From Pseudomonadota bacterium (lineage in GTDB: Bacteria > UBA10199 > 2-02-FULL-44-16 > JAAZCA01), in contig JBDRBN010000074.1 in assembly GCA_043822785.1 (NCBI GenBank), positions 203 to 64,202 on the forward strand: 64,000 bases of DNA, written 5' to 3'. The first letter of the stretch is position 1. The number at the start of each line of letters is the position of its first letter. The notes under the pieces were generated by a model. That model was not told the DNA's origin and made no database searches. It was given only the letters and a program-made list of their open reading frames with translations. Shown in pieces: positions 172 through 41,102 of this stretch. The translations under genes and the position numbers were made by a program.

Positions 172-2013
172 ATGGTAGATCTACTTATACAAAAGGTAAT
201 CACAGCATACGTCGATTTAGGTGGGCTAACGCGCGATGAATGTAAATCGCTCGATCTAAACGAGAAGCAGGCCGATGCACTTTGTGAGGCGTTTGAGGAC
301 GGGTTCATTAGTGAAGATGAGAGAGGTAAGCTCACTTCTGTTGGATTTTCTTCGCAATTTATAACAGACCTGAACAGCAGTAATGCTTTACAACAAAGGG
401 TAAAATGGCTGGCCGAAATAGTGCTCGAAGATCCGGATTTGAAAGTTCGCTCTGATGCAGCCTATGCTCTTAGCAAGATCGGCCCTGGGGCAAAGGCTGC
501 TATCCCAGCCCTTATCGTAGCGCTTAAAGATCAGAACGAGAACGTACGCATTGATGCAAGCATTGCCCTTGGTGAGATCGGCCCTGCGGCTGTTCCGGCG
601 CTTATCGAAATGCTTAAGGATCCGAATTGGCTCGTTCGATCTGCTGCAGCCTTTGCCCTTGGTGAGATCGGCCCTGGGGCAAAGGCTGCTTTCCCAGCCC
701 TTATCGCAACTCTTAAGGATAAAGAAGTTGATAGAAGAGCAGTCCAAGCCCTTGTCCAGATCGGCCCTGCAGCTGTTCCAGCTCTTTTCGCAGCGCTTAA
801 GGATAAAGACGTTCGAAGCTTTGCCGCTTCTGTGCTTGCTAACATCTACCCTGCAGCAGCAGAGTTTGTAGCTATCAAGAAAGATGATATCATTGCTGCT
901 GAGAAGTCTATCGGTGCTCAAGGAGCGCTACTCTTGCGGGAGAAATTTGGCATTGAGCGCTTTAATCGGTATCATCCATCTATCCTAAAACACCTGGTCA
1001 AGATGGCCTCTGACAAAAACCACGATAAGCGCAAACCCCTAATCCTCGCTATGGTAGCATCTTATGATGTTGATTCCGATGTCTTTTATTGGGGCAGGCG
1101 CTTTAAATACGATCCCAGAATTCGGCTGGTGGTGGTAGAGGCCCATAGCAGAGAGGAATTCAAGAAGCGCGCTTGGGAAATGCGTGATACCTACGGTATT
1201 CCTGATGAGGTGTTCATCACAGCACATGGCAAATGGGATCTCATAATGCTCGGTGACACAGCTCTAACCAATGGAGAAATTGCCGAAGACTTCAAGGGCT
1301 TCTTTGGCGATAAAAAGGGGCAAGTTGTTCTCAATGCCTGCGATGCCGGCGCGCCGCCGCCAAAAGGCAAGAAGGACTTTGCACAGATGACAGCCAATGG
1401 TTTTGAGGCAGAAACCATTGCTGCCCGGGCAGTCGAAGGTCTCACAGATTTACGCGTAGAGATCACAGGCGATGGTAGGGCGCGCCTAGTACCCACATAC
1501 TTTGAGGTGGGCTCTGAGTTTTTCGGTGTTAATCACGGTGGCATGACCTTTTATCCAGATCAGAAGCCCGTGTATGAGCGCGTTGCTGATGTCAATAATA
1601 GCTGGCAACCTAGCGTAGCAGTAAGCGTGGCAAACGATGAATGGCACGTCGGCGGCGGCTTTGGTTACAGCCATCAGCTCTTTAACAGATTACGCTTCCG
1701 CTATGACCTTTTAACTGATGTAGGTATGAATGATCATATCGGTTCTCGTATCCTCTTTAATCCTGAAATAGCTGCGAGTTTAACAAATCACCTGATGTTT
1801 GCCACAGGCGCAATGGGAGGTGTTGAATTTGAATTGGACGAGAACATGCAGACTTTAGTGCAACCTGTTATTCAGCAGTACTCTGCGTTCAAGTTTGTGA
1901 TGCCCACAATAAATACAGAACTCGATCTTGGCTATGTCAACACAGTCGATCCTGACCACGGCGTTAAGCCCTCATTTTTCTCCAGACTTCAGGGAAGGAT
2001 TAATATTTTCTAA
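172..2013 (+). CDS. HEAT-repeat (PBS-lyase type) protein with C-terminal caspase/CHAT-like domain
   Basis: Residues ~60-270 carry tandem repeats of the form DPDLKVRSDAAYALSKIGPGAKAAIPALI, typical of HEAT/PBS-lyase repeats. The C-terminal domain has 'FITAHG', then about 36 aa, then 'VVLNACDAG', which resembles the His...Cys dyad of clan CD (caspase/CHAT) peptidases. Internal ORFs in other frames are repeat artefacts. Confidence 0.6.
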   Translation: MVDLLIQKVITAYVDLGGLTRDECKSLDLNEKQADALCEAFEDGFISEDERGKLTSVGFSSQFITDLNSSNALQQRVKWLAEIVLEDPDLKVRSDAAYALSKIGPGAKAAIPALIVALKDQNENVRIDASIALGEIGPAAVPALIEMLKDPNWLVRSAAAFALGEIGPGAKAAFPALIATLKDKEVDRRAVQALVQIGPAAVPALFAALKDKDVRSFAASVLANIYPAAAEFVAIKKDDIIAAEKSIGAQGALLLREKFGIERFNRYHPSILKHLVKMASDKNHDKRKPLILAMVASYDVDSDVFYWGRRFKYDPRIRLVVVEAHSREEFKKRAWEMRDTYGIPDEVFITAHGKWDLIMLGDTALTNGEIAEDFKGFFGDKKGQVVLNACDAGAPPPKGKKDFAQMTANGFEAETIAARAVEGLTDLRVEITGDGRARLVPTYFEVGSEFFGVNHGGMTFYPDQKPVYERVADVNNSWQPSVAVSVANDEWHVGGGFGYSHQLFNRLRFRYDLLTDVGMNDHIGSRILFNPEIAASLTNHLMFATGAMGGVEFELDENMQTLVQPVIQQYSAFKFVMPTINTELDLGYVNTVDPDHGVKPSFFSRLQGRINIF

Positions 2014-2774: not shown

Positions 2775-3659
2775 TTGATGGAAATTATACTCTGTACAAT
2801 GTGTATTTTTGTTGCAGTCTTTGCTGCGATATTTGCTGTAAGTGAATATCTTAGACGAAGGCGACTTCTTGGCGAAGCTACATCTTCCAAAGTAGGCAAC
2901 AAGTCAGCTCTGCAGAATATTGCATTTGCGCTTGGAAGGGTCTTTGAAGGCATTGGCGAATTACCCTTCATTTCTTCAATAAATGCTAGAGCAGAAAATC
3001 GACTTCAAAAAGCAGGCATTGATTCTAAAGAAATCGCAGCTGGATTTGTGGCTCTTGAAATAATCCTAATTTTATTAGGAGCTGCCATGGCTTTGGCACT
3101 CTTTAATAATCATCCATTTGTTGCAGCCACAGTCGGAGGAGCATCGCTTTGTCTGTTTTTAGAACTCTGGCTTTTTTTTAAGATCAGAACCAGGCGAGAA
3201 TCAATACAGCGCGATCTTCCGTTTGCGCTCGACATGTTGACCTTATGCGTAGAGGCGGGGCTCGATCTTGCCCAGGCAATTACCAAGGTATCTGTTAGAC
3301 TCATGCGCGGCCCTTTGGCCCAGGAGCTGCATAAGGTTGACAGATCGCTACGCTCAGGCGCGTCGCGAGGCGAAGCTTTGTTAAAAATGACAGGCCCAAC
3401 TAGCGATCCTGCGCTTGCGTCTTTGGCATCCCTTCTCATTCGAGCAGATAGAATGGGCTCTGGCGTTGGCCCTATCTTAAGAAGCGCATCAATTCGCCTG
3501 CGTCGCACGCGATTTTTGCAGGCGGAGAGGCGTGGCGCAACTGCAGCACAAAAAGCGCTCGTACCCTTAATCATTTGTATAATGCCTGCGACGTTTGTCA
3601 TTGTATTTGGCCCGATTGCGGTGCGCCTCATCACAGGCGGCCTGGAGGCGCTGCTATGA
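2775..3659 (+). CDS. type II secretion system F-domain protein (TadB/TadC-like)
   Basis: Multi-TM protein. The segment LPFALDMLTLCVEAGLDLAQAITKV ... ALASLASLLIRADRMGSGVGPIL is typical of the GspF/TadC T2SSF domain. Confidence 0.65.
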   Translation: MMEIILCTMCIFVAVFAAIFAVSEYLRRRRLLGEATSSKVGNKSALQNIAFALGRVFEGIGELPFISSINARAENRLQKAGIDSKEIAAGFVALEIILILLGAAMALALFNNHPFVAATVGGASLCLFLELWLFFKIRTRRESIQRDLPFALDMLTLCVEAGLDLAQAITKVSVRLMRGPLAQELHKVDRSLRSGASRGEALLKMTGPTSDPALASLASLLIRADRMGSGVGPILRSASIRLRRTRFLQAERRGATAAQKALVPLIICIMPATFVIVFGPIAVRLITGGLEALL

Positions 3660-4126
3660 TTTCAATCACAACATTAATCGCCTTAGCGCTTATCGCCGGC
3701 TCAATCATTTTGACCCGAAAGATTTATTCAAACAAAGATGATGAAAAGATAGATGCTTCAAGCAAAATGCAGCTCGATTCTGATGAAAGATGCATTATAC
3801 CTGATGCAAGAGAGTGGTGCAAAACGCTTGAGAAGTTGTGCAAAAGCGCCGTGTTTTGTTTTGACGAGTCTTATCGTCTGGCAGCGTTGGGAGATGAGGC
3901 GCTTAAATCTGCAATAGATGCCAAAAGCCAAGCTCAGCAACACCTTGTAGATATAGCTCCATCCAGCGCTTGTTCTGATTTGCTAGAAATGATGGCCACA
4001 GCCAGGCGAAAAACATGGGCGTCAAAGGAAGTAAATTGGAATGGCAGTATTATGCATGCGTGCGTAACTCCTGTGGGTAAGAGATGGATGATTGTATGTA
4101 TTAAGAAGCTAGAAGTCAGAAGTTAG
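3653..4126 (+). CDS. hypothetical single-pass membrane protein
   Basis: Start chosen at the internal Met (MISITTLIALALIAGSIILT) overlapping the upstream stop (ATGA). One TM helix, then a soluble domain. Confidence 0.4.
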   Translation, partial: AMISITTLIALALIAGSIILTRKIYSNKDDEKIDASSKMQLDSDERCIIPDAREWCKTLEKLCKSAVFCFDESYRLAALGDEALKSAIDAKSQAQQHLVDIAPSSACSDLLEMMATARRKTWASKEVNWNGSIMHACVTPVGKRWMIVCIKKLEVRS

Positions 4127-4133
4127 AGGTCAG

Positions 4134-4550
4134 ATGAAAACTAAAATTATCCATATTATTACATCGTTTGTGTTCTTTATGCTCATGCTTTTATGTATAA
4201 GCTGTTCGCGGGGTGATATCGACAAAGCATCCATGCAAGCATCTGAGCTATCTTATAGCAGCGAGCAGACTGTAAACCAAAGGCTTGCCGAAGAGCTCGT
4301 GCGCCATGGCCGCATGCTTTTGCGATCCGGCAGATATGGGGCTGCCATGGATTCAGCAATGCTCGCAGCATTCTTATCAGATAAAGCGGAGCACACAGCT
4401 TTTGAGTCAGAATGCAGAAGCGCACTTTTGCATGCGGTAAAAAATGCAAAAAGACAAGCCCTTGATGCTCGCGATGCAGGTGATCTTCGTCAATTCACAA
4501 GAATCGAGAACACAGCAGATGCCATGGAGCAAAGCCTGGAGGCAAGATGA
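4134..4550 (+). CDS. hypothetical lipoprotein
   Basis: The N-terminus MKTKIIHIITSFVFFMLMLLCISCS has a signal peptide and a lipobox-like Cys. Confidence 0.45.
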   Translation: MKTKIIHIITSFVFFMLMLLCISCSRGDIDKASMQASELSYSSEQTVNQRLAEELVRHGRMLLRSGRYGAAMDSAMLAAFLSDKAEHTAFESECRSALLHAVKNAKRQALDARDAGDLRQFTRIENTADAMEQSLEAR

Positions 4551-4825
4551 GGCATGGCTTTAAAATGAAACTCAAACCCCTTGATGGCGATAAACTTGTA
4601 GAAGGTGAGTTTAATAAGCATGGCATATTGTTTCTCATGTCAAACGCGAGAACGCTTATCCTTTCTCCTCTGCCGGATCACCGAGCGCTTATCCATGCTA
4701 TATTTCTTTATAAGAAAAAAAAGGTATTTGCCGCTTCTCTTAGAGAAGGTCTTGGTCTTGGAAACGACGGTTTTGTTAGTCTCTCACACGGCGCGCATAT
4801 AGATGTGGGGAGTAAGAGGTTAACA

Positions 4826-5716
4826 ATGATTTTTGATAAGAAAAAGCGTCTCAAACGCAAGCACTGGCTGGCTTTGGCTCTTTTGCCTCTGGTTGTCTTT
4901 TCTTTTGCGCTAGTTCGTCACAAAGTGACAGGATCGCCAAACAAAAAATCACAAATTGCGCGCCAGCAAAAGCTTGCTGATAATAAATCAGCATCACAGC
5001 TCATAAGCGAAGCAAAGATGCATATGCGCGCAGGAAATGCCGATCAGGCTAGCCTTACACTGATGGAAGCGATGGATCAAAACCCGCACAACAAGGAAGC
5101 CATGGATCTGTTGGAGTCCATCAACAAAGATGCGGCGCTTGCGAAATCCTCTATTAATGAAAAGGAGGTCGATCTTATCTCTTCGGCAAAAGACATGTAC
5201 GACGAAGGCAGACAGCGCATGCAAGAAGGAGATGTTGCCGGCGCACATGATCTCTTTTCTCGTGCTCTTAAAGAATTATCTGAAGCAGAGATAACCGTTC
5301 CATTTAAGTCAGCTCTTCTTGCGGCAAAGGATAACGCGCTTTTAATGCTCAAGCAGGAGATGGCTCCAAGGCTGCTCGAAGCGCAAAAGCTCTTTGACGC
5401 TGCCCGCAAAAAGGAGACTAAAGAAGCCATAGACTTACTCGCACAGGCATATGCTTATGCCAGTTCTGTTGCAAAGATCCTTCCGCAAAATGATGAGGCG
5501 CTCTCAGTTTGCAATAAGCTGCGCAAAGAGATTGAGGCTGTCTCTAGCCGCTTAATTCTTTCTGCACAGGCGATCGAGCGTTTTTCAGGATGTAAGCAGG
5601 CATTGGTTGAATACGAACGCATTGCATCCGTGCTCAAGGATATAGATTCGGACGCAGCAGCAGTTGCAGCAAACGAAGCACGCAGGTGCAGCCGATCACA
5701 AGGGGGTGATCTGTGA
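4826..5716 (+). CDS. membrane-anchored helical/TPR-like protein
   Basis: Internal ATG at 4826 is preceded by AAGAGG 8 nt upstream. A TM segment (HWLALALLPLVVFSFALV) is followed by an Ala/Leu-rich helical, TPR-like sequence. The ORF as given starts at 4547; the start is uncertain. Confidence 0.45.
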   Translation: MIFDKKKRLKRKHWLALALLPLVVFSFALVRHKVTGSPNKKSQIARQQKLADNKSASQLISEAKMHMRAGNADQASLTLMEAMDQNPHNKEAMDLLESINKDAALAKSSINEKEVDLISSAKDMYDEGRQRMQEGDVAGAHDLFSRALKELSEAEITVPFKSALLAAKDNALLMLKQEMAPRLLEAQKLFDAARKKETKEAIDLLAQAYAYASSVAKILPQNDEALSVCNKLRKEIEAVSSRLILSAQAIERFSGCKQALVEYERIASVLKDIDSDAAAVAANEARRCSRSQGGDL

Positions 5717-6891
5717 TGTGGCGCATAGAAATAGCAATCCTGGTCGCTATGTCGATATGTTCGTATTCGCTTAAGTCATATGCAATACAGCGCAAACCAC
5801 AGTTCTTTGTCGAGCCGTCAAGGAGCATGGGTTTTGAAATCCCTTATGGTTGGCAAGCACAGGCAGGGTTTGGAAATAGCATTGCCGATCTTTCAGACGG
5901 CAAGGGCAACCAAATACGAGTTATATCAAGGGCGCATTCTAAAGGACCCAACGCTGATAACATCAAGCAACTGATAGCTAAGCTCTATTCAGGGGCCAGG
6001 ATTAGAAGGCAGAATGCGCTGATAACTCTGTTTGATGTTGATGCGCGCGGTGGGCTAAGGGGGGCGCTTATCCGCTTGGGTACGGATGCTTGCGATGTGA
6101 ACATCCTATGCATTAGTGCTAAATCTGATTTTGCAGAAACATTTCTTGTTGCAAGGGAGCTGGCTGCGAATATGAGATGCGATCTTGCAGCTGATCCATC
6201 CCTATGGGACGGGGATCTACAGCAAGTGATCGCAAGGGCAACTTTTGCTTCTTTGGATGGAAGGGCCGGCTGCTCCGGAGTGAGTGAGGAACTAACAAGG
6301 ATGGCTCTGATAGCAAAGCAGCTGGGCAAGTTATCCGATGCAAAGCAGCTCGAATCTATTGCTCACGATCTATCCCTTAGGGCGCATATGAAGGGCATGC
6401 AAAAAAATTTGAGTTTCTTTTCGCTCCTCATGAGCGCTTCGCTTGCCCTGGATGAAGGCGATATCGATAAGGCCAAGAAGTTAATGAGAAGAGTTGAACC
6501 GTTCAATGCATCTCGCTCGCAATTGTTTTTGTCACTTAAAGTTAAGATCGCGCGCCTTGAAAATGATGTGGCTTATGCAGAGCAAGCGTTTGAGCAAATA
6601 AAAGGGGATGTATGTGGCCGCTCGGGCGCTATGGCTGCATATGAACTGGGCCGCGCAATAGGCGCTGCGGATTCCGGCAGAGCCATTAAGCTCTTTGAGG
6701 ATTCAATCGAGGCAGACCCGACTTTTGTTCCTGCCTATGTTGCACTTGGACAAATGCTTGTGGATAGCGGCATGCCTGCAACTGCGGTCTCTGCGCGCAT
6801 GAATGCGCGCTTGTCCAAGGCACCAAAGGTGCCAGAGGTACAAAGCTTCAAAATGCGCTTCGCAACAGTTGAAAAGAGTGTTCATCCATGA
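5713..6891 (+). CDS. secreted TPR-like repeat protein
   Basis: Signal peptide MMWRIEIAILVAMSICSYS. The C-terminal helical repeat region AYELGRAIGAADSGRAIKLFEDSIEADPTFVPAYVALGQML looks TPR-like. Overlaps the upstream gene by 4 bp. Confidence 0.5.
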   Translation: MMWRIEIAILVAMSICSYSLKSYAIQRKPQFFVEPSRSMGFEIPYGWQAQAGFGNSIADLSDGKGNQIRVISRAHSKGPNADNIKQLIAKLYSGARIRRQNALITLFDVDARGGLRGALIRLGTDACDVNILCISAKSDFAETFLVARELAANMRCDLAADPSLWDGDLQQVIARATFASLDGRAGCSGVSEELTRMALIAKQLGKLSDAKQLESIAHDLSLRAHMKGMQKNLSFFSLLMSASLALDEGDIDKAKKLMRRVEPFNASRSQLFLSLKVKIARLENDVAYAEQAFEQIKGDVCGRSGAMAAYELGRAIGAADSGRAIKLFEDSIEADPTFVPAYVALGQMLVDSGMPATAVSARMNARLSKAPKVPEVQSFKMRFATVEKSVHP

Positions 6892-9669: not shown

Positions 9670-10476
9670 GTGACAGAGCATTTGGAAATGAGCGTCGGCA
9701 CAGAGAAAAAGTTTGGGTACGAGTGGGATCTCTACAGAGAGATCATACCGCTTCACGAAAAACAGTTTGTGGAGTGGATAAGTCCTGTTCCCCTTTCGTT
9801 TTTCAAGGGAAAGAGGTTTCTCGATGCTGGATGCGGCATAGGCCGAAACAGCCTTTGGGCTCTTAAGGCAGGCGCTGCTTCTGGATATGCCTTTGATTAT
9901 GACGAGCGCACTGTGAGTGTGGCTCGTGAGAACCTCAAAAAGTTTTCCAGTTGCCAGGTGAAATTCGAATCCATCTATGACATCTCCTTTAATGATGAGT
10001 TTGATGTGGCCTTTTGCATAGGCGTAATTCAGCATCTTGCTCATCCCAGAAAGGCTGTGGAAAAGCTCGTAAAGGCTATAAAGCCTGGCGGCACTCTCAT
10101 AATTTGGGTTTATGCCCATGAGGGAAATGAGAGATATCTAAAATTCGCTGATCCTATAAGGGCGCACTTCACTTCGAGGGTTCATCCTCTGATAACAAGA
10201 TACATCTCAAAGGCGCTTACCTTCTTGCTTAAGATCTACCTTCTCTTTCCGCATGGGAATGCGTATCTAAACCTTTTAAAGGAGAGATCTTTCAGACATG
10301 CTGAGGCAATGGTCTTTGATCAGCTTCTTCCGAGCATCGCTCATTACTTTAAAAGAGAAGAGGTGGAGGCCTTGGTAAAAGGGCTGCCAGTGAAGGCGCT
10401 TCACCTCACGCATACAAATGGGATGTCATGGACCCTTGTTGTTCAAAAGGAGAGCGGGGGGGATCTTGCTGAATAA
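9670..10476 (+). CDS. class I SAM-dependent methyltransferase
   Basis: Motif I FLDAGCGIGRNS. GTG start immediately after the upstream stop. Confidence 0.75.
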   Translation: MTEHLEMSVGTEKKFGYEWDLYREIIPLHEKQFVEWISPVPLSFFKGKRFLDAGCGIGRNSLWALKAGAASGYAFDYDERTVSVARENLKKFSSCQVKFESIYDISFNDEFDVAFCIGVIQHLAHPRKAVEKLVKAIKPGGTLIIWVYAHEGNERYLKFADPIRAHFTSRVHPLITRYISKALTFLLKIYLLFPHGNAYLNLLKERSFRHAEAMVFDQLLPSIAHYFKREEVEALVKGLPVKALHLTHTNGMSWTLVVQKESGGDLAE

Positions 10477-11959
10477 GAGGCTAAAAGCCGGGCTGGTTTG
10501 TGTTGTGTTGATCTTGGGAGCGGTTTTCACCCTAGCTTCGGTGAAGCACGATAGAAAGTTTCTCGATGTGGACGAAGCTGCTTGGACGTTCAATGGCTAT
10601 TTTCTCGATCTATATATTTCCGGCGACTGGGATGTAAACAAGTGGCGCGAGTTTGATAAATACGCCCAGCATCCTCCAGCTGCAAAGTATCTGTTTGGAG
10701 CACTTCATCACGCAATTGGCGAGCCCATAAAATCCATGGAGCCTCGCCGTTTTTGGTTTGAGAACGATCTGGATATTATTGATTTCAAGGATCAGGTTCT
10801 TAAGGGGTTGTACCAGAGGGTGACGTATAGGCAGATCATGGCTGGCCGATATATGGCTGCCGGCTTTGCTGTGATCTCGGCCATTTTATTCTTTGTTTTA
10901 GCCATGCGACTTAGTGGAACAGCTGCAGCCCTCATCGGATATGTCATATTAGTCCTTCATCCCATGTTTCGCGATATCGTTACAGTTGCAACTGCGGATT
11001 CATTTCTTCTTTCATTGTGCATGCTCTCTTTACTGTTAGCTCTGGCATGCGGGTCATCTTTTTCGAACAGAAAGGCCCGGGGCTGGATGTGGGCAGCGAT
11101 CTTGGCTGCGGTGCTGGGCATATTGTTCGCTTCTAAACTGATAACCTTTGCGTGGATCATTCCAGTGGCATTGACTGCAGCGTTGTGTGCTCATGGCAGG
11201 CGAGCTGTTATAATTTCTCTGTGCGCTGTTTCATGTGCTGTTCTTATAGGCTTTGTCATAACATATATCCTTGATCCAGGTCTTCATGGCCATCCTTTCG
11301 CTCAGATCATCGATCGCATAGCTTGGAGGAAAGATCGAATTGAGATTCAGCAAATAGTCTTCTCCTCACAAAGGCTAACCGCGTATTTTGACAGGTTCTG
11401 TTTTCTTCTTGGCCATACATTTTATTCAAGCCGCATCAATATGGTCTTTTTGGTTCCTCTGTTTGCCACAGGCATTATCGCGCCCTTTTTCAAAGGAGCA
11501 CTAAGGGCTAAGTCGAGGGAGAGGTTTCTCACGCTTTTGCTAGCAGTGTTCTTTGTGGGACTTACATTCTATTCGCTTCCTATGGCATGGACCAGATATG
11601 TTACCTCATGCCTTCCGTTTGTTATCCTAGTGGGCGTTCAGGGTGCAGGACTTCTCATAGATGCAACGGCCATTTGGTCATCATTGGGCACCAGGATAAA
11701 AGCAGTTGTGTTATCAACGCTTCTTGTAGTTGCCATGGCTTCGGCTGTTATAAAGCACGATCTTGGTCCTCGCTTTTGTCAGGTGCCGCGCATACCTCCT
11801 CCAGAACATGTGTTTATTTCCAAGATATTTGCTTACAGCCTCATGCACCCAGGCAAATCCCAGGAAATACATAAACATTTGTACAAGTACTTTCTAGAGC
11901 AAGGAGATTCAAAGAGGGCTGCCTTTCAGAAAAAACAGCTCGAAAATATGCAAAAGTAA
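10418..11959 (+). CDS. PMT/ArnT-like (GT39/GT83-type) polytopic membrane glycosyltransferase
   Basis: More than 10 predicted TM helices. A conserved first-loop acidic motif (KFLDVDEAAWTFNGYF) resembles the DE motif of the PMT/ArnT family. The start is uncertain: the ORF overlaps the upstream gene by 59 bp. Confidence 0.55.
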   Translation: MGCHGPLLFKRRAGGILLNKRLKAGLVCVVLILGAVFTLASVKHDRKFLDVDEAAWTFNGYFLDLYISGDWDVNKWREFDKYAQHPPAAKYLFGALHHAIGEPIKSMEPRRFWFENDLDIIDFKDQVLKGLYQRVTYRQIMAGRYMAAGFAVISAILFFVLAMRLSGTAAALIGYVILVLHPMFRDIVTVATADSFLLSLCMLSLLLALACGSSFSNRKARGWMWAAILAAVLGILFASKLITFAWIIPVALTAALCAHGRRAVIISLCAVSCAVLIGFVITYILDPGLHGHPFAQIIDRIAWRKDRIEIQQIVFSSQRLTAYFDRFCFLLGHTFYSSRINMVFLVPLFATGIIAPFFKGALRAKSRERFLTLLLAVFFVGLTFYSLPMAWTRYVTSCLPFVILVGVQGAGLLIDATAIWSSLGTRIKAVVLSTLLVVAMASAVIKHDLGPRFCQVPRIPPPEHVFISKIFAYSLMHPGKSQEIHKHLYKYFLEQGDSKRAAFQKKQLENMQK

Positions 11960-12124: not shown

Positions 12125-12206
12125 TGCCGCGGTGGCGGAATTGGCATACGCGCTGGATTTAGGATCCAGTGCCGTAAGGCTTGTGGGTTCGAATCCCACC
12201 CGCGGC
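12125..12206 (+). tRNA. tRNA-Leu (anticodon TAG)
   Basis: Cloverleaf read directly: acceptor GCCGCGG/CCGCGGC, anticodon stem CTGGA/TCCAG with loop TTTAGGA (anticodon TAG), long variable arm, T-loop GGGTTCGAATCCCAC. No encoded CCA. Confidence 0.85.
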
Positions 12207-12227
12207 ACAAAAAAACATAATCGAATC

Positions 12228-12415: not shown

Positions 12416-13723
12416 ATGAAGAGTTCGGTGGAAAAGATTAATTCAATCCGTCAAAAGATTACAATTGAGGTGAGAGCAGCTTCTGTGGACAAGGCGTTTA
12501 AGGCAGCGCTTGAAAAGGTGCGCAAAGAGGCAAAGGTGCCCGGCTTCAGAAAGGGCAAGGTGCCAGATGATGTTATACTGCAGCGCTTTGGCAATGACGT
12601 AAATGTAGAGGCAACAAAAGAAGTGATCAGCGCAAGCTATCCTGAGGCAATAAAGCAAGCAGAAACAAAACCGATTTCTGATCCTCATGTGGATATCGAA
12701 AAGCCCATAGAGAAGGGTAAGCCCTTTACATATTCTGCTACGATCGAGATCTATCCAGAAGTTGTGGCAACAGGCTATGAAGATCTTTCGCTAACAAGGC
12801 AGAAAGTTACACTTACAGATGAAGAGGTGGAAACAGAACTCAAAAGGCTGCAGCAGCAGATGACCCAGCTTGAGCCAGCAGAGGGTGCCAAGATCAGCCA
12901 TGGCATTGTCGCCACCATTGATTTCAAAGGCACTGCAGGCGGAAAAACATTTCCAGGCAGTGAGGCTGAAAACTATGTGGTCGATTTTGGCACTGGAGCA
13001 CTGCTTTCAGAATTTGAGGAGCAGATCAAGGGCATGAGGGCTGGTGAGGAAAAAGATATTTCCTTTCACTATCCCACTGATTTTTTCAGGCGCGAGATCG
13101 CTGGCAAGAAGGGTGAATTCAATGTCAAGGTCAAGGAGCTGCGCACTAAGGTGGTGCCTGGGCTGGACGATGAGTTTGCTAAATCGCTAGGGGACTTCAA
13201 AGATTTAAATGCTGTGCGCGCTGACCTTAAAAAACGCATTTTGGAGTATAAGGAACGCATGGAAACAGCCGGGCTCAGAGAGCAGGCGATTCGTGAGCTC
13301 ATCGCAAAACATCAAAATCTCGAAGTGCCTACAGTGCTCGTAGATTCTGAACTCGGCAACATGCTAGAGCAGCTCAAGAGGCAGTATGAGATGCAGGGCC
13401 AGAAGTTCGACACGAGTAAGATCGATGCAAAACAGTTTGTAACCCAGAACGTGAAGGAGGCTACAGACAGGGCAAGGGGTTATATGCTAGCAAGAGCTGT
13501 TTCAGCCCAGGAGAAGCTCGAGGTTACAGATGAAGAAATGGATGCGCGCATATCCCAGATGGCAGCCCAGTCAAGAAGTACATCCGAGCAAGTGCGCGAT
13601 TACCTTAATAAAAATAATATGATAGATAACTTAAGAGCCCAGGTGCTTTTTGAGAAAACGCTTGATTTGATAGTCAGTAAGGCTAAAATTAAGACAGAGA
13701 AGCCAAAAAAAGGGAAGAAATAG
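12416..13723 (+). CDS. tig: trigger factor
   Basis: N-terminal KINSIRQKITIEV and PGFRKGKVP motifs. About 435 aa. Synteny with clpP-clpX. Confidence 0.95.
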   Translation: MKSSVEKINSIRQKITIEVRAASVDKAFKAALEKVRKEAKVPGFRKGKVPDDVILQRFGNDVNVEATKEVISASYPEAIKQAETKPISDPHVDIEKPIEKGKPFTYSATIEIYPEVVATGYEDLSLTRQKVTLTDEEVETELKRLQQQMTQLEPAEGAKISHGIVATIDFKGTAGGKTFPGSEAENYVVDFGTGALLSEFEEQIKGMRAGEEKDISFHYPTDFFRREIAGKKGEFNVKVKELRTKVVPGLDDEFAKSLGDFKDLNAVRADLKKRILEYKERMETAGLREQAIRELIAKHQNLEVPTVLVDSELGNMLEQLKRQYEMQGQKFDTSKIDAKQFVTQNVKEATDRARGYMLARAVSAQEKLEVTDEEMDARISQMAAQSRSTSEQVRDYLNKNNMIDNLRAQVLFEKTLDLIVSKAKIKTEKPKKGKK

Positions 13724-13759
13724 TTCAATATTTTAAAATTATTCAAAAAATGGGGCTAT

Positions 13760-14380
13760 ATGATCAAAAATGAACTAATTCCAATGGTAATTGAGCAGAC
13801 CCACCGAGGGGAGCGCGCGTATGATATATTCTCCCGACTGCTCAAAGATAGAATCATATTTATTGGATCGCCTGTGACAGATGATCTTGCAAACTTGATA
13901 ATAGCGCAGCTTCTATTTTTGGAATCAGAAGATCCTGATAAGGACATCCATCTGTATATCAATTCACCAGGGGGCGTTGTCACAGCAGGCTTGGCTTTAT
14001 ACGACACCATTCAATATGTTCGTCCAGATATTTCAACCTTATGCATGGGCCAGGCATCGAGCATGGGAGCAGTGCTTCTAGCTTGCGGAACAAAAGGTAA
14101 GCGATTTGCCTTGCCTCATGCGCGCGTCATGATTCACCAACCCATGGGCGGCTTTCAGGGACAGGCTGCTGATGTGGCAATACACGCAAAAGAAGTGCTG
14201 CGCGTGCGCGAAGAGATAAACGGCATCTTGGCTGAGCATACAGGCCAGGATTTGGCAAAGATTCAGACAGATACTGATAGGGATTTCTTTATGACTTCTG
14301 ACGAGGCAAGGGAGTATGGTCTGGTGGATGAGGTCGTTACCTTTCGCCCGTCCAAGGTCAAGGAAGGGAAGAAGAAATGA
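13760..14380 (+). CDS. clpP: ATP-dependent Clp protease proteolytic subunit
   Basis: [17 protein letters not shown] and the GQASSMGA (Ser active site) and HQP motifs. Confidence 0.95.
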
Positions 14381-15645
14381 CAAAACCTCCTATTGATGAT
14401 CCCATGAACCTCTCTTGTTCGTTCTGCGGCAAGAACCAGCGCGAAGTTCGAAAACTAATAGCAGGGCCAACTGTCTACATATGCGACGAGTGCATAGAGC
14501 TATGCAACGATATCATAGCTGAAGAGAACGTGCGCACTCGCACTGGTGGGGAGCGCATTGGCGTTCCAAAGCCTGTTGAGATAAAAGATGCTTTGGATGA
14601 ATATGTCATTGGGCAAGAGCACGCAAAAAAGGTTTTGTCCGTGGCGGTTCATAACCATTATAAGAGGATAGAGTCCCGCACGCGCAGGCAAGCAGCAGAC
14701 GATGTTGAGATTCAAAAGGCAAACATTCTGCTTGTCGGTCCAACTGGCACAGGAAAGACGCTTCTTGCACAAACGCTTGCTCGCATGCTCAAGGTGCCAT
14801 TTTGTATAGCTGATGCGACCACGCTCACCGAAGCAGGTTATGTGGGTGAGGATGTGGAGAACATCATCCTAAACCTTTTGCAGGCCGCTGATTTTGATCG
14901 TGCGCGCGCAGAACGCGGCATCGTCTATATAGACGAGATCGATAAGATTGCGCGCAAATCTGAAAATCCATCGATCACGCGCGACGTGTCTGGCGAGGGA
15001 GTGCAGCAGGCACTTCTCAAGATCATCGAGGGTACGGTTGCCAGCGTTCCGCCCAAGGGCGGCCGCAAGCATCCCCAACAAGAATTCATACCTGTGGATA
15101 CCAGCGATATCCTCTTTATCTGCGGAGGTACGTTCGTAGGGCTAGAGGATATAATCGAACGCCGAGTGGGTGAGAAGAAGATGGGTTTTGGAGCTGAGAT
15201 AAAAGGCAAGACTGATAAGAAGCTCGGCGAGCTGCTTCGCGAAGTGCAGGTGGAGGATTTAAACAAGTACGGAATCATCCCAGAGTTTTTGGGCCGCATA
15301 CCAGTGATTACAACTCTTGACGAGCTGGATGAGGGTTCGCTCATAAGGGTGCTATCTGAGCCTAAAAACGCGCTCATCAAACAATATCAACGACTCTTTG
15401 AAATGGAAAAGGTAAAGCTCGTGTTTGCAAAGGGCTCGTTAGAAGCAGTTGCCAAAGAGGGGATAAGGCGCAAGTCAGGAGCCAGAGGGCTTCGTGCTAT
15501 TCTCGAGTCGATCATGCTCGATATCATGTACGAGATACCATCTAAAGAAGATGTGCGCGAAGTTCACATAGACGCAGATGTAATACTCAAACGCAAGCCA
15601 CCGATCATAGTCTATGATTCGGAGAAAAGGGCTGATAGTGCCTGA
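14377..15645 (+). CDS. clpX: ATP-dependent Clp protease ATP-binding subunit ClpX
   Basis: Zn-finger CSFCGK...CDEC and Walker A GPTGTGKT. Overlaps clpP by 4 bp. Confidence 0.95.
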
Positions 15646-15806
15646 TGCTAACGGCTAACGGCTAACGGCTAACGGCAACAGGAGGCATTAGTAAGTTTTA
15701 GGCCGTAAGCGAACGAAGTGAGCGAGCCGTTTGTTGTAAGCGAGTGAAACGAGCGAGCTGTAAGCCGATTGCTCATATTTTTTATGATAAACAGAGAGGA
15801 TTATTC

Positions 15807-18248
15807 ATGACAGAACAGAAGCAGAAAACTCAAAGAGTTGCAGATCGCGTTGTTGTTCCATTGCTGCCGCTTCGCGATATCGTGGTGTTTCCCCATATGG
15901 TGGTGCCGCTGTTTGTAGGCAGAGAAAAGTCCATTGCCGCGCTCGAAGAAGCAATGAACAAAGAACAGGATATCCTTCTCTCTGCTCAGGTCAATCCCAA
16001 GACAAACGATCCCAAAGAGGAAGATATCTATAAGACCGGCACTCTGTCTTCCATAATACAGCTTCTTCGCTTGCCTGATGGCACGGTCAAGGTGCTGGTG
16101 GAGGGAAAACGGCGTGCGCGCATCGTACAGTATGTGAGCCATCCAGACTTCTTCTTGGTGGAGGCTGAGCCCTTTATGGAAGATGCAGAGGTAACTGTTG
16201 AGACCGAAGCGCTCATGCGCGGCGTGAAGGCCACTTTTGAACAGTATGTAAAACTAAATAAAAGAATTCCGCCAGAGATGCTTGCATCAGTATCCACCAT
16301 CGACGATCCTTCAAGGCTTGCTGATACCATAGTGGCGCATCTGTCGCTCAAGCTCCCTGATAAGCAATCCATACTTGAGATCATCGCGCCTAGCGAGCGC
16401 CTGGAAAAGCTGCTCTCTCTCATGCAATCAGAGATAGAAATACTTCAGGTGGAGCGCCGCATCCGCTCGCGCGTAAAAAAGCAGATGGAGAAGACGCAGC
16501 GCGAGTATTACTTAAATGAACAGATGCAGGCTATTCAAAAGGAGCTCGGTGAGCGCGACGAGTTTAAAACTGAAATAGCCGAGCTTGAGGAGAAGGCAAA
16601 AAAGAAAAACCTCTCTGCTGAGGCCCATGATAAGCTTTCAAAAGAGATTAAGAAGTTAAAGATGATGAGCCCGATGTCGGCCGAGGCAACAGTAGTTAGA
16701 AACTACATAGACTGGATCCTATCCATACCGTGGAGCGAGCCCACCAAGGATAAGCTAGATGTGAAAGATGCTGAGCGCATCCTCAACGAAGATCACTATG
16801 GCCTGGAGCAGCCCAAAGAGCGCATAATAGAGTATCTTGCCGTGCGCAGCCTGGTGGAGAAGATGAAAGGCCCGATCCTTTGTTTTGTGGGCCCTCCGGG
16901 AGTTGGAAAAACATCGCTTGGCCGCTCCATTGCCCGTTCGATGGGCCGCAAGTTCATACGCCAAAGTTTAGGTGGAGTGCGCGACGAGGCTGAGATACGC
17001 GGACATCGCCGCACCTACATCGGTGCGCTTCCTGGAAAGGTCATCCAGAGTTTGAAAAAAGCTGGATCGTCAAACCCTGTGTTTTTGTTGGACGAGGTGG
17101 ATAAGATGAGCATGGATTTCAGGGGAGATCCATCTGCAGCATTGCTTGAGGTATTGGATCCAGAGCAGAATTCCACGTTCAACGATCACTACCTTGATCT
17201 TGATTATGATCTGTCTGATGTGATGTTCATAACAACAGCGAATACGCTTCCTGCTATTCCCATGCCCCTTCAGGACCGCATGGAGATCATAAGAATCTCT
17301 GGCTATACAGAGCTTGAGAAGATCAAGATCGCTCAGCTTTATCTCATTCGCAAGCAGCGCGAAGCAAACGGCTTAACTGAGAAGAATATCACGTTTACCG
17401 AGGCAGCGCTTAAGCTCATCATCAGGCGCTATACCAAAGAAGCGGGCGTAAGAAATCTTGAGCGCGAGATCGCTTCGGTTTGCCGTAAAGTTGCACGCGA
17501 TGTAGCGCGCTCTGGCAATAAGGAGAAGATGATTCACATAACACCCAAAAAAGTGCAGCAGTATCTGGGCGTTCCCAAATTTCATTTTGGCTTAGCTGAA
17601 GAGCACGATCAAATTGGCATATGCATGGGCCTTGCATGGACTGAAGTGGGTGGCGAACTTCTAACTACCGAAGTTTCGGTCATGCCCGGCAAGGGCAAGA
17701 TGATAGTCACGGGTAAGCTGGGCGATGTGATGCAAGAATCTGCACAAGCAGCTATGAGCTATGTGCGCTCAAGGGCAGAAGCCTTAGGCCTTGGACGAGA
17801 ATTCTATAGCAAGCTCGACATTCACATTCACTTGCCAGAGGGCTCTATACCTAAGGATGGGCCTAGCGCAGGCATTACTATGGCAACTGCTATTTCATCG
17901 TCTTTGCTTAAGATCCCTGTGCGCAAGGATATAGCAATGACTGGCGAGATCACTTTGCGTGGTCGCATTTTACCCATCGGCGGTCTTAAAGAAAAGCTTC
18001 TCGCTGCGCATCGCGGTATGATAAAAACTGTGCTCATTCCTAAAGAGAACGAAAAGGACCTCAAAGAAATTCCAGCCAAGATCCTGCGCGAGCTCAATGT
18101 GGTGACGGTCGAGAACATGGACGAGGTGCTAAAGCTTGCGCTTGCGCTAGAGGATCCTGAAAAGCTCTTTAAGAAGGGCAAGGAGCCAAAGGGCATGCTC
18201 AGGACATCTGGCACAACTGAAGGTGCGCAGCCAGGCACAGCTCACTAA
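15807..18248 (+). CDS. lon: Lon protease
   Basis: Lon N-terminus [23 protein letters not shown], Walker [10 protein letters not shown], and the catalytic region [14 protein letters not shown]. Start taken at the MTEQKQ Met rather than at the ORF start. Confidence 0.93.
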
Positions 18249-18256: not shown

Positions 18257-19102
18257 ATGAGCAAAAAATTCCTCATCATAAATGCTGATGACTTTGGCAT
18301 GAGTATGCCTGTGAGCAAGGGCATTCTCAAGGCAGCTGGGTCAGATGTGGTGCGCTCAACGAGCGTGATGACAAACTGCGAGAGCTTTTCTGCCTCTATT
18401 GATGAGCTTGCTTCTTCTGGAATCAATTTGGATGTGGGCTTTCATGCAACACTGACTTGGGGGCGACCGATCTCTGATCCGCATAAGGTGCCTTCGCTCG
18501 TAAATAAAGAGGGAAAATTCCACAGCAAGGCTAGTTTTCTTACCAGATCTTTTTTGGGCATGATTTCAAAAAAAGAGGTTTATGAAGAGCTGCGCGTTCA
18601 GTGCAAAAGACTTAAAGAGCGCGTGCCAACGATCAGCCATATCGATGGTCATCATCATGTTCATACATATCCTTTAGTAAGATCAGCAGTCGAGCGTATT
18701 GCTCGTGAATTTAAGATTCCGTTTGTTCGCGCGCCGCGCGAGGGGATGTGGTCGCCGCTTTCATGGTCTGGCGCAAAAAGGCTTGCAATAGCTATGCTTC
18801 CATCATCCTCCCCTCTGTACTGGCGTATGCGCGGATTTCGCACTGCCGATCATTTTGGAGGATTTGGTCTTGGTGAATCAGAGAAATTCAAAGATAGATG
18901 GATGAAGGTTTTTGAGCGAATTCCAGAAGGCGTAAGCGAGATCATGGTGCATCCGGGTTATTCCAGTTCTGAAAACGATTCTTACAAAGGTCGTGAAAAA
19001 GAAATCGAGTGGCTTGTGGATGAGAAACTCGTGAATGCAGCCAGGAAGTCAGGCATCTCATTTACGTCATTTGATGTGCTTAGCGAGATTCGGGGCAGCT
19101 GA
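18257..19102 (+). CDS. YdjC/ChbG/HpnK-family carbohydrate deacetylase
   Basis: N-terminal FLIINADDFGMS plus the HVD...HPG pattern typical of the YdjC family. Confidence 0.75.
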   Translation: MSKKFLIINADDFGMSMPVSKGILKAAGSDVVRSTSVMTNCESFSASIDELASSGINLDVGFHATLTWGRPISDPHKVPSLVNKEGKFHSKASFLTRSFLGMISKKEVYEELRVQCKRLKERVPTISHIDGHHHVHTYPLVRSAVERIAREFKIPFVRAPREGMWSPLSWSGAKRLAIAMLPSSSPLYWRMRGFRTADHFGGFGLGESEKFKDRWMKVFERIPEGVSEIMVHPGYSSSENDSYKGREKEIEWLVDEKLVNAARKSGISFTSFDVLSEIRGS

Positions 19103-20048
19103 TTTCGCGAATTGCGTATATATCCCGCTCGTGTGTGACGTGGTAGATGCGCACCGATACTTCAAGCGAAAGCCCCAAGGCAATGAGCTGAATGCCTAAG
19201 ACCATGGAAAGCATGGAGAAGATGAGATTACCCAGATGTTCTGCAATGACGAGGTCGTCGAAATAGTAAAGCGAAGTGATGATGAAGGCGATCACAAAGC
19301 CTACCGCAAAGAGAAGAAATCCGATCATGCCAAAGAAGTGAAGGGGCCTTGTTATATAGCTTATCATGAACTTTACGGTAAGAAGGTCCATGAGCACGCG
19401 GAATGTCCTGGAAATTCCGTAATTGGATTTTCCTTTGGGCCTCACGATGTTCTTAATGGGCACCTCGGCAATGGATAGGCCCTTCCAGCTGGCGAGCGCC
19501 GGAATGAAGCGGTGCAGTTCACCGTAGAGGTCGGTGTCTTCTAGCGCTACGCGTCGATATGCCTTAAACGTTGTTCCAAAGTCGCGAAGCTTTACGCCGG
19601 AAAGCATTGCCATGAGCCAATTGGCTATCATCGAGGGCAAGCGTCTCATCAGGAAGTTGTCGATGCGCTGTTTGCGCCAGCCGCTGGCAATGTCATAACC
19701 CTCATCTATCTTTGCCAAAAGATTTGGTATGTCTTCTGGAAAATGCTGCAAATCACCGTCCATTGCGATGATGATCTCGCCTCTGGAGTGGTTAAAACCT
19801 GCGGCCAGGCCGGCGGTCTGTCCGAAGTTACGTCTGAGCCTGATGATCAAAAGATATTTATCTGTCTTCTGAATCTCTTTTGCCAGGGCAAAGCTTTTGT
19901 CTGTGCTTCCGTCGTCCACCAAAATAATTTCATATGAACGCCCCAGGCCATCGAGCACCTTCTTGAGGCGGGAGTGAAGTTCTTTGATGTTGTCCTCTTC
20001 GTTAAAGAGAGGAACCACGACAGACAGCTCACATTTTTTCGACTGCAT
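19080..20048 (-). CDS. GT2 polyprenyl-phosphate sugar transferase (ArnC/DPM1-like) with C-terminal TM helices
   Basis: LSVVVPLFNEEDNIKEL and ILVDDGSTDKS GT2 motifs, with two C-terminal TM helices. Start taken at MQSKK, which has an AGAGG RBS. Confidence 0.8.
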   Translation of the reverse strand: MQSKKCELSVVVPLFNEEDNIKELHSRLKKVLDGLGRSYEIILVDDGSTDKSFALAKEIQKTDKYLLIIRLRRNFGQTAGLAAGFNHSRGEIIIAMDGDLQHFPEDIPNLLAKIDEGYDIASGWRKQRIDNFLMRRLPSMIANWLMAMLSGVKLRDFGTTFKAYRRVALEDTDLYGELHRFIPALASWKGLSIAEVPIKNIVRPKGKSNYGISRTFRVLMDLLTVKFMISYITRPLHFFGMIGFLLFAVGFVIAFIITSLYYFDDLVIAEHLGNLIFSMLSMVLGIQLIALGLSLEVSVRIYHVTHERDIYAIREISCPESR

Positions 20049-20055
20049 AATACCT

Positions 20056-20925
20056 CTAGAGTTCGTCATATGTAATCAAAGAGATTTCGTTCTCAATGAG
20101 CGCATCCTTCAGGGATGCGTCCAGCAGTGCTCGATACTCGTGAACGCGCCGGCAGTCAAGCCAACTTTTCTCGCCTGCAATGTTTGCAGCGCCGGCGCTT
20201 GCGGCCGGATGGGTCATGATCTCCAGGGTTTTGCAGGGCAGAGCGCTGAATAGTTTGTGATAGACATCCTGGGTCATGCGGCCGGTAAAGGATATGCCGA
20301 AGAACGAGTCTGTAAATTTGAGCCCGAAGCCGGCTGCAATTTTTGCAAACCGCCTGCTTTGACTACTTATGAATAAAGACTTGAGCCTTTGTGTTAGCTT
20401 TGGCCCATCGTCTGATTTGATAACATGCTCCAGTTCCCGGGCAACGCGTATGCAGCGTATGCCAAACCTCTTTGCAACCCTGCACGCTGTTTTGCCTATC
20501 ATGGGAGAGGCCAGGTGCATGTGTTTTTCGCTGTCCAGATGAGTTGGTTTTATGCCGCAGCTGATAACCTTTTCAACCTGGGCGCAGAGTTCTGTTTCAA
20601 CGTGTAATGGATCCAGCCTGCCAAACAGTATGCGTAGGGCAAGAGATCGCGCGTTTCCCAGGAATTTGCCGTTGCTTCTGACAAGCGTATGGATGAGCGA
20701 GGGCTCAGAGATGGGGCTTCCGCGCAAAAGGTTTAGATGCACTCCAACGCCAAGCCTGCCATTGCCGCGCGCGCCTTTTGCAGCCTCGTCAAAGCCTGGC
20801 ATGTTCGCCATTATCGTGGCAGACGAGAGTATGCCATGCTCGCTGGCTGCAAATACAGCTTCGTTGACAGCTGACGAAAGGCCGAAGTCATCGGCGTTGA
20901 TTATTATGTGTGACGAGGAATTCAT
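20056..20925 (-). CDS. YdjC/ChbG/HpnK-family carbohydrate deacetylase (second copy)
   Basis: N-terminal HIIINADDFGLSSAVNEAV. Paralogous to 18257-19102. Confidence 0.75.
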   Translation of the reverse strand: MNSSSHIIINADDFGLSSAVNEAVFAASEHGILSSATIMANMPGFDEAAKGARGNGRLGVGVHLNLLRGSPISEPSLIHTLVRSNGKFLGNARSLALRILFGRLDPLHVETELCAQVEKVISCGIKPTHLDSEKHMHLASPMIGKTACRVAKRFGIRCIRVARELEHVIKSDDGPKLTQRLKSLFISSQSRRFAKIAAGFGLKFTDSFFGISFTGRMTQDVYHKLFSALPCKTLEIMTHPAASAGAANIAGEKSWLDCRRVHEYRALLDASLKDALIENEISLITYDEL

Positions 20926-34872: not shown

Positions 34873-35459
34873 GGGGGGCGAAGAGATTTCGACGTGGACG
34901 ATGGAGTATGCGCGGCATGCCGACCTGTCAGTAAGTCGATAAACTATTGGCAAAACCATTAAGTGCCGAGCCTATGGCTCTTGCTGCCTAACTATAGGTA
35001 GCACGTCAACCGGATGACGCCCGCTAATCCGGAAGACGCCGCTAGCGGGCTTTGCTCTCTCAAGTTCTCCCTGGCACGAAAGAGCAAGACCCAGCAGGGA
35101 TAGCTTAAGCGAAATTCTTTCCTTGGGAGCTCGGTTAAGCGAAACTAAATACAAGGAATAAGCATGTAGAAGCGCACATAAAATCTTCGCGGACGGGAGT
35201 GCGATCAAAGGTCGCCTCGGGAGGTAACTCCCGATGAAAAACCCGGCTTACATCAGGGAAACCCTACCCTTGCGTCGTTCCCGCAAGGCGGGCGATCCTG
35301 AGGGGTGAAAGCCCTGCAGAGACTGTAATGATAGAAGGTACTATCGGAAAACGATAAATCTAAACCTTCTATAATACGCTGGGCTCCCTGTTAAAGGGAT
35401 GAAGAGATAGTCCATGCCGCAATGAAAATTGCGGATCACATGTCTCCCCGCCTCCACCA
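34873..35459 (+). ncRNA. ssrA: tmRNA (ssrA), unusually long
   Basis: 5' GGGGGCGAAGAGATTTCGACG and 3' CGCCTCCACCA can form a 7 bp acceptor stem. An in-frame tag ORF GCA AAA CCA TTA AGT GCC GAG CCT ATG GCT CTT GCT GCC TAA (AKPLSAEPMALAA) lies at 34950-34991. Located directly downstream of smpB. No canonical GGTTCGA T-loop could be found, and the 587 nt length is atypical. Confidence 0.6.
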
Positions 35460-37588: not shown

Positions 37589-37608
37589 ACATTATCTCAT
37601 ATGCTCTT

Positions 37609-40961: not shown

Positions 40962-40982
40962 AAGAATAATTAGAAAATGGAT

Positions 40983-41067: not shown

Positions 41068-41102
41068 TCTCTTACCTTCATATCTTTCTCTGATCGCATC
41101 AC

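Follow-up and report, generated by a model that had tools for sequence, protein, structure and literature searches.

A HEAT-repeat protein with a clan CD-like cysteine-protease domain and a predicted OmpA-like beta-barrel on a Pseudomonadota contig

What is a HEAT-repeat protein doing with a His/Cys pair of the kind that marks clan CD peptidases? This question is raised by a gene at the start of a 64,000-nucleotide stretch of contig JBDRBN010000074.1 (positions 203 to 64,202, forward strand; assembly GCA_043822785.1, Pseudomonadota bacterium), the whole of which is called the window hereafter. An original prediction, made from the letters of the DNA, had taken the product for a HEAT-repeat array fused to a caspase- or CHAT-like protease, linked to cell death or defence. 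The open reading frame (ORF) lies exactly where it had been placed (172..2013, forward strand), is complete and encodes 613 amino acids plus a stop; its start is fixed, since an in-frame TAG at 163-165, directly upstream, makes a longer N-terminus impossible. The ratio of nonsynonymous to synonymous substitution rates (dN/dS), computed against the DNA of a homologue (locus L005), is 0.22 for the whole gene; thus, the ORF is a real gene under purifying selection. By part, the ratio is 0.10 in the protease-like domain, 0.24 in a C-terminal barrel, 0.26 in an N-terminal head and 0.49 in the HEAT array, so that the protease-like domain is the most constrained part of the gene and the HEAT array the least constrained. 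The parts are as follows, where CPD stands for cysteine protease domain.

172..411, + strand: non-repeat, helical head of about 80 amino acids, near-identical to the homologue P0002 over residues 1-85 and conserved in the homologues P0002 and P0080
424..867, + strand: HEAT / PBS-lyase-type array of about five repeats, residues 85-232, matched by HEAT_2 and by AlphaRep entries of the PDB
877..1581, + strand: alpha/beta domain of a clan CD-like type related to CPD/DUF4347, residues ~236-470, delimited by relatives, conservation, AlphaFold2 and Foldseek
967..969, + strand: Arg266, in the 'FxRY' motif of a helical extension, kept in 74/75 copies and invariant in alignments A3 and A4
1066..1068, + strand: Asp299, near-invariant, at the C-terminal end of predicted strand beta1
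1138..1140, + strand: Glu323, kept in 75/75 copies, at the C-terminal end of predicted strand beta2
1225..1230, + strand: His352-Gly353, the predicted catalytic His right after beta3, from conservation, AlphaFold2 and hhalign
1339..1341, + strand: Cys390, the predicted nucleophile right after beta4, from conservation (69/69), AlphaFold2 and hhalign
1600..2010, + strand: predicted eight-stranded antiparallel beta-barrel, residues 477-609, with a tail 'INIF' ending in Phe, from AlphaFold2 and Foldseek

By direct searches, residues 230-613 (384 amino acids) matched nothing in Pfam (E-value ≤ 10), NCBIfam, PADLOC or the PDB sequences (phmmer), nor was anything reached with a two-sequence profile. 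Apart from the window protein, a word-index search of 5.8 billion proteins returned a single homologue, with 76% identity; NCBI names both 'MAG: HEAT repeat domain-containing protein [Pseudomonadota bacterium]'. Taken over all word-index searches, the yield was the window protein, a pair of homologues with ~76% identity to it and a single distant relative, and a scan of GTDB genomes found no relative. When a profile built from two C-terminal regions was run exhaustively with HMMER against 1.84 billion cluster representatives (50% identity), we identified 78 proteins with an E-value ≤ 1e-3, 18 of them with an E-value ≤ 1e-30, and most of these matches span residues ~250-405, that is, the His/Cys segment.

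Both motifs noticed at the outset are present in the protein, namely, EVFITAHGKW with His352 (nucleotides 1225-1227) and QVVLNACDAG with Cys390 (nucleotides 1339-1341), although the two residues are 38 positions apart instead of about 36. Over 75 aligned domain copies from the relatives, His352 and Gly353 are each kept in 73, and Cys390 is a cysteine in all 69 ungapped copies, preceded at position 389 by Ser in 43 and by Ala in 24; conservation of the pair among homologues is what the original prediction had staked itself on beforehand. Four further positions are kept to a similar degree: Arg266 (74/75), Pro289 (73/75), Asp299 (74/75) and Glu323 (75/75). Two further family alignments agree: R266, D299 and E323 are invariant in the full-length alignment A3, and the 42-sequence domain alignment A4 shows no exception at any of the five positions R, D, E, H and C; the family consensus reads KPLxLxxxAKxDxNGxFY ... 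RxxxxEV ... HG ... VLNSCSTG. Since the His/Cys pair is conserved across more than 70 distant relatives, it is, to judge from these alignments, a genuine signature of the family rather than a chance occurrence, and its form, a conserved HG and a conserved (Ala/Ser)-Cys each behind a putative hydrophobic strand, is the motif pattern of clan CD. The His is lost in two copies only, both of them in one relative, P0020, which has three domains in tandem and keeps the third intact.

P0020 deserves a remark of its own. This protein of 1291 amino acids carries its three domain copies at residues ~200-320, ~620-740 and ~1060-1215, and in copies 1 and 2 the catalytic His is replaced by Thr and Ala, respectively, and the Cys segment is missing, which suggests pseudo-protease copies beside a single putatively active one.

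The structural prediction is consistent with this assignment. Using alignment A4, AlphaFold2 modelled residues 230-613 with a mean predicted local distance difference test (pLDDT) score of 90.8 and a predicted template modelling (pTM) score of 0.83; on a two-sequence alignment, the C-terminal part had a pLDDT < 50. In the alpha/beta domain (pLDDT about 95), the strands occupy model residues 61-67, 89-95, 117-121, 155-159 and 185-188, and the model places His352 (model residue 123) right behind the third strand and Cys390 (model residue 161) right behind the fourth, so that it reproduces the clan CD arrangement of a parallel-sheet alpha/beta fold with the His at the end of beta3 and the Cys at the end of beta4. 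Asp299 and Glu323 are predicted at the C-terminal ends of strands one and two, the 'GIxxFxRY' motif on two N-terminal helices, and a long beta-hairpin (residues 420-447) after the core. The best non-barrel match of the model in a Foldseek search of the PDB is the caspase CED-3 (4m9r), with an E-value of 2.6e-4 over ~160 columns and a TM-score of 0.33-0.37. A comparison of A4 by hhalign with a caspase-3 sequence that had been entered by hand gave a probability of only 17%; at this low probability, it puts beta1 in register, the HG at His121-Gly122 and SCSTG at QACRG / Cys163.

To find which branch of clan CD the domain is nearest to, we scanned the relatives individually against Pfam, both as 71 full-length proteins and as 42 domain segments. 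DUF4347 (PF14252) is matched by 21 of the 71 full-length proteins and by 25 of the 42 segments (E-value ≤ 1), with a best E-value of 1e-7; two relatives score above Pfam's gathering threshold of 24.6 bits, namely, P0020 (27.3) and P0027 (25.6), and the matches span positions ~22-110 of the hidden Markov model (HMM), which correspond to the beta2-His-Cys stretch. The window protein itself does not match DUF4347. Peptidase_C80 is matched by one relative over the His-Cys region, below the gathering score (E-value 1e-4 to 5e-4), and has no HMM match in the window protein. CHAT is matched weakly by two of the 42 relatives, likewise over the His-Cys region (best E-value 4e-4). As for the CHAT or caspase-type identity first proposed for the domain, it was not borne out, as neither CHAT (PF12770) nor Peptidase_C14 matches the window protein even at an E-value ≤ 10, and Peptidase_C14 is not matched by any of the 71 proteins or 42 segments either. 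A profile search of the PDB gave a single relevant match, chain G of 9QPE (9qpe_G, 'DUF4347 domain-containing protein'), with an E-value of 0.15 and with the HG and the Cys aligned. The same kind of search with alignment A3 was dominated by helical-repeat designs, and the bridging relatives P0027 and P0020, used as single queries, did not reach any solved structure. DUF4347 is presumably the family also called CPDadh.

Chain G of 9QPE is Tce1 (PA0256), a type VI secretion effector of P. aeruginosa; its top structural homologue is reported to be the cysteine protease domain of TcdB (3PEE), with His186 and Cys240 superposed on the TcdB dyad (PMC13323088). Its paralogue Tce2 is reported to be toxic to yeast in a manner that depends on the active site (PMC13323088), and the C80 CPDs have the His/Cys dyad of clan CD as well (PMC2900308). 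Because the dyad is conserved, the relatives match clan CD profiles (DUF4347, in 25 of 42 segments, C80 and CHAT), AlphaFold2 places the His and the Cys as expected and the model matches CED-3, the domain is probably a clan CD-type Cys/His hydrolase domain, and the clan-level assignment of the original prediction stands, including the profile and structural similarity that it had set as its check. By these profile comparisons, the nearest known branch is the DUF4347/CPD (C80-like) one of secreted toxins and effectors, not that of CHAT proteins or caspases, and the window family is best read as a previously unannotated sister family of DUF4347/C80 rather than as a member of DUF4347.

Turning to the N-terminal side, the repeats are real: the window protein matches HEAT_2 (E-value 3.2e-35), HEAT (1.8e-20) and HEAT_PBS (3.5e-14), and the strong PDB sequence matches, with E-values down to 7e-53, are AlphaRep designs, which are of the same repeat type. 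However, the array does not fill the N-terminal half of the protein, as had been thought, and consists of three canonical and two shortened repeats at about residues 85-232, roughly a quarter of the chain, behind a non-repeat head of 80 amino acids. The head has no Pfam match. The set of ~76%-identical homologues, including the window protein, has lengths of 566, 613 and 675 amino acids, and P0002 has about two repeats fewer than the window protein. We observed that the repeat number differs among these close homologues in the very region with the highest dN/dS, the adjoining head being much better conserved.

At the other end of the protein, the C-terminal ~350 residues had been regarded as one protease region, and this view stood for the His/Cys domain at ~236-470 and missed a second domain behind it. 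AlphaFold2 predicts residues 477-609 (model residues 248-380) as eight antiparallel strands of 11-17 residues each, with a pLDDT of about 88-92. The top Foldseek matches of this part are eight-stranded outer-membrane barrels, namely, OmpA (1qjp, E-value 5e-6, TMt 0.61) and OprF (4rlc, TMt 0.63), followed by NspA, OmpX, Ail, PagP, PagL and designed transmembrane barrels, and the Foldseek probability is 1.0 for membrane barrels versus 0.2 for GFP-type soluble ones. The strand faces alternate between one rich in bulky hydrophobic and aromatic residues and one rich in Gly, Ser and charges, and all turns are 2-5 residues long. The barrel is common to seven relatives (P0002-P0005, P0009, P0011 and P0025) and has a conserved PE(I/V)xxGLTNH motif; the C-terminal residue is Phe or Trp in six of the eight aligned barrels, the window protein ending in ...INIF, and P0002 and P0080 run 3-8 residues beyond a conserved GRF. 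No sequence-level family was found for it in Pfam, including the outer-membrane protein families, or by a word-index search with the barrel alone. A mitochondrial-type beta-signal (Po-x-G-x-x-Hy-x-Hy) was also considered for the last strand and, judged by eye, does not fit.

The model thus contains the eight closed, antiparallel and putatively spanning strands of the OmpA-like class. The Sec signal peptide of OmpA-like outer-membrane proteins was found neither in the window protein nor in the seven barrel-bearing relatives, none of which has a hydrophobic N-terminal segment, and a signal peptide hidden by a mis-called start is ruled out for the window protein by the in-frame stop at 163-165. 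All told, we lean towards a membrane-embedded barrel, as the modelled fold suggests. Behind the protease domain, some relatives without the barrel (P0007, P0010 and P0012) close with a conserved 'AR.(L/F)FR.IFG' stretch, which may be an amphipathic membrane-binding helix in place of the barrel.

In the 73 relatives compared for their architecture, the clan CD domain is located close to the C-terminal end (median lengths: 347 residues ahead of it and 55 behind it), and some 23 types of N-terminal region, unrelated to one another, can be told apart. HEAT repeats occur only in the window protein and two close homologues, and ankyrin (Ank) repeats in two other relatives; the nearest barrel-bearing relatives have in common an unannotated N-terminal module of ~400 amino acids, and one family member comes from a Micrarchaeota archaeon. 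By analogy, a constant C-terminal protease behind interchangeable modules recalls the CPD-containing toxins.

Downstream of the gene, the window encodes a 198-amino-acid protein whose N-terminus is hydrophobic, a protein of the T2SSF/TadC-like kind, a lipoprotein-like ORF and two tetratricopeptide repeat (TPR) proteins. Directly abutting the stop codon, at 2014-2027, is a perfect 14-nucleotide palindrome, AACGCGGTCGCGTT, which was flagged as terminator-like, with a weak T-run; the next ORF starts 158 nucleotides on. A link with the downstream secreted, TPR and TadC-like genes had been proposed. An operon with the 198-amino-acid, TadC-like and TPR genes was considered and rejected: none of these genes recurs near P0080 (L005), P0004 (L001 and L002) or P0009 (L003 and L004), and all the neighbourhoods differ. 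The TadC-like gene had also been called an orphan. This is not the case, since the window contains, between 36.9 and 43.1 kb, a Tad/Cpa pilus locus with a single T2SSF gene. The genes concerned are the following.

2775-3659, + strand: TadC-like protein, a second T2SSF gene, followed by the lipoprotein-like ORF and the two TPR proteins, to 6891
36887-37588, - strand: T2SSF gene of the Tad/Cpa pilus locus, the sole one of that locus
37612-39501, - strand: CpaF-type T2SSE ATPase of the Tad/Cpa pilus locus
39498-41102, - strand: secretin of the Tad/Cpa pilus locus
41106-41981, - strand: RcpC/CpaB of the Tad/Cpa pilus locus
42251-43084, - strand: TadE/G-like protein of the Tad/Cpa pilus locus

The genes at 2775-6891 and the pilus locus (36887-43084) are ~30 kb apart, and the TadC-like and TPR genes are best read as the detached remainder of a split Tad system rather than as partners of the HEAT protein. 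The proposed cell-death or defence context was not recovered either: PADLOC matches are confined to the HEAT repeats, and nothing significant was returned for the C-terminal 384 amino acids or for the five neighbours tested.

We made some further observations on the neighbourhoods. P0004 lies 3 kb downstream of a gene for a 2155-amino-acid RHS/YD-repeat toxin (L001 469-6936), and the same unannotated ORF of 145 amino acids directly follows P0004 in two independent contigs (L001 11429-11866; L002 1723-2160). In the window, a 513-amino-acid, multi-pass hydrophobic ORF (10418-11959, + strand) has no Pfam match at an E-value ≤ 1e-4 and adjoins two ORFs of ~268 amino acids; glycosyltransferase genes are located 7-10 kb downstream of it (GT2, 19083-20069; PMT_2-like, 20925-22580). 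The canonical housekeeping cluster tig-clpP-clpX-lon is found at 12416-18248 (+ strand) with a tRNA gene ahead of it at 12126-12207, a tmRNA gene at 34882-35198 (+ strand; Rfam, 89.7 bits), and a second tRNA gene at 48798-48873 (- strand). The minus strand also encodes a Fic/DOC-domain protein (24533-25681), a eukaryote-type Ser/Thr protein kinase of 712 amino acids (50362-52497) and a YhcG/DUF1016 PD-(D/E)XK nuclease (43940-45151); a YhcG/DUF1016 gene is also present near P0009 in L003, which is probably a coincidence.

How, then, might the parts work together? By a modest preponderance, we favour the reading of the protein as a three-module, membrane-associated cysteine protease that may process itself and whose N-terminal module is variable. 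The head and the ~5 HEAT repeats would form this module, which would bind proteins or be cargo and is what varies across the family; the clan CD domain, with its putative dyad His352/Cys390, would cleave a peptide bond; and the barrel would most likely sit in a membrane and tether the protein there. Cleavage may occur in cis and set the N-terminal HEAT module free, much as toxin cargo is released by CPDs, or it may occur in trans, cutting a partner bound by the HEAT repeats. As a constant processing module with variable cargo is what such a mechanism leads one to expect, the position of the clan CD domain near the C-terminus behind ~23 types of N-terminal region counts as support for it. Autoprocessing that would release the N-terminal module is nevertheless put forward tentatively, as a possibility on the doubtful side. 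A bolder form of the same idea, a speculation that we consider improbable, is a minimal 'cargo, CPD, barrel' delivery device: a protein without a signal peptide whose barrel would insert into a membrane, be it the producer's or the target's, and whose CPD-like protease would then free the interchangeable module (HEAT repeats here, Ank repeats or ~400-amino-acid domains in relatives), in which case Arg266, facing Asp299/Glu323, could be a P1 cleavage site or an autoinhibition site. Were this true, the device would be a miniature analogue of the autoprocessing of the large clostridial and MARTX toxins, and a new class of membrane-inserting effectors.

A rather unlikely alternative to the membrane-associated protease is that the protein is a secreted or injected effector acting in trans, which would leave the cell by a route independent of a signal peptide, such as a type VI, type IV or type I secretion system (T6SS, T4SS or T1SS), cleave target-cell proteins recruited by its HEAT repeats and insert its barrel into the target membrane rather than into the producer's outer membrane. 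This would fit well with the missing signal peptide in every barrel-bearing relative, with the variable N-terminal modules, which include eukaryote-like Ank and HEAT repeats, and with the variable gene neighbourhoods, one of which has an RHS toxin nearby; moreover, the nearest characterised relatives (Tce1/Tce2 of DUF4347, the C80 CPDs and OspB) are all delivered toxins or effectors. However, no T6SS, T4SS or type III secretion system genes are found among the scanned ORFs of the window, which is part of the genome, the relatives' loci have no neighbouring Hcp, VgrG or PAAR genes, and no direct precedent was found in the literature for the insertion of a preformed eight-stranded barrel into a target membrane. 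The enzyme might instead be real without being a peptidase, since GPI8 and some legumains are transamidases or ligases within clan CD; it would then be a transamidase/ligase or a thiol hydrolase acting on a non-protein membrane substrate, or the barrel might be a soluble ligand-binding one. We think this improbable, somewhat more so than the delivery device: although R266, D299 and E323 are invariant with no role assigned to them, the barrel belongs to no sequence family and the missing signal peptide would suit a cytoplasmic soluble protein, every family matched by the relatives is a peptidase or a putative one, and the barrel's Foldseek ranking far above GFP-type soluble barrels, its strands of 11-17 residues and its one bulky hydrophobic face opposite a Gly/Ser/charged one all speak for a membrane.

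It is very unlikely that the protein is a CHAT- or caspase-type protease with a repeat-array sensor, serving cell death or anti-phage defence together with the downstream cluster. The clan CD fold and dyad, the repeat-plus-protease architecture, the weak CHAT matches of two relatives (E-value 4e-4) and the PADLOC matches to HEAT-containing candidate defence proteins would all agree with such a role, but the window protein matches neither CHAT nor C14, DUF4347 matches outnumber CHAT matches by 25 to 2, the PADLOC matches are HEAT-only with none in the C-terminal 384 amino acids, and the neighbours are not conserved with the homologues and resemble pilus genes of the tadC/tadD type, complementing the Tad locus.

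With 78 clusters (50% identity) among 1.84 billion proteins, the domain family is rare, and its members are currently annotated merely as 'HEAT repeat protein' or 'hypothetical'. The present analysis gives it a conserved signature, Arg-Asp-Glu-His-Cys, and ties it to a branch of clan CD, the toxin-type CPD/DUF4347 one. By this relationship, the branch would no longer be confined to giant toxins and T6SS effectors but would take in C-terminal modules that follow a wide range of N-terminal domains, in bacteria as well as in at least one DPANN archaeon. The fusion of a protease with a barrel in the absence of a signal peptide poses the question of the route and the target membrane of a small beta-barrel, and if autoprocessing does take place, the family would offer a compact system in which to study cargo release of the CPD type.

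Compared with known systems, the window domain resembles DUF4347 and Tce1 in the succession of a hydrophobic strand with HG, about 40-50 residues and a hydrophobic strand with Cys, and the window protein and Tce1 both lack a signal peptide. In contrast, the near-invariant R266 (in the 'GIxxFxRY' extension), D299 and E323 are additional features of the window family, its domain is C-terminal behind variable modules with no Hcp or T6SS context seen, and Tce1 has no beta-barrel. In TcdA/B, an N-terminal cargo is followed by the CPD and then by a membrane-interacting region. The window protein shares the clan CD dyad with the C80 CPDs (MARTX, TcdA and TcdB, activated by inositol hexakisphosphate, InsP6), its proposed order of cargo, CPD and membrane element parallels that of TcdA/B, and its predicted hairpin after the catalytic core may correspond to their beta-flap; however, these toxins exceed 2,000 amino acids, compared with 613 here, and have a large helical or beta translocation domain where the window protein has a small, preformed-looking barrel of eight strands. 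The likeness to caspases and CHAT proteins is in the modelled caspase-haemoglobinase fold, with the His after beta3 and the Cys after beta4, and, for many CHAT proteins, in the combination of a repeat array with a protease, but the motif is SCSTG in the window family instead of the QACxG of caspases, and the window gene has no defence or cell-death gene context by PADLOC or in the homologue loci.

The barrel is similar to those of the N-domains of OmpA and OprF and of OmpX, NspA, Ail and PagP in its predicted fold, the number and length of its strands, its alternating faces and, for six of the eight aligned barrels, an aromatic last residue, but it differs from them in having no long external loops, as both sets of turns have 2-5 residues, in forming the C-terminal end of a large protein that looks cytoplasmic and in matching no outer-membrane protein family of Pfam. 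Type V autotransporters likewise consist of an N-terminal passenger and a C-terminal barrel, with proteolytic release of the passenger in some; since they have a Sec signal peptide and a 12-stranded barrel and the window protein has neither, it is not an autotransporter. The kind of protease is itself already known, and what is unusual is its fusion, in a protein without a signal peptide, with HEAT repeats on one side and an OmpA-like barrel on the other.

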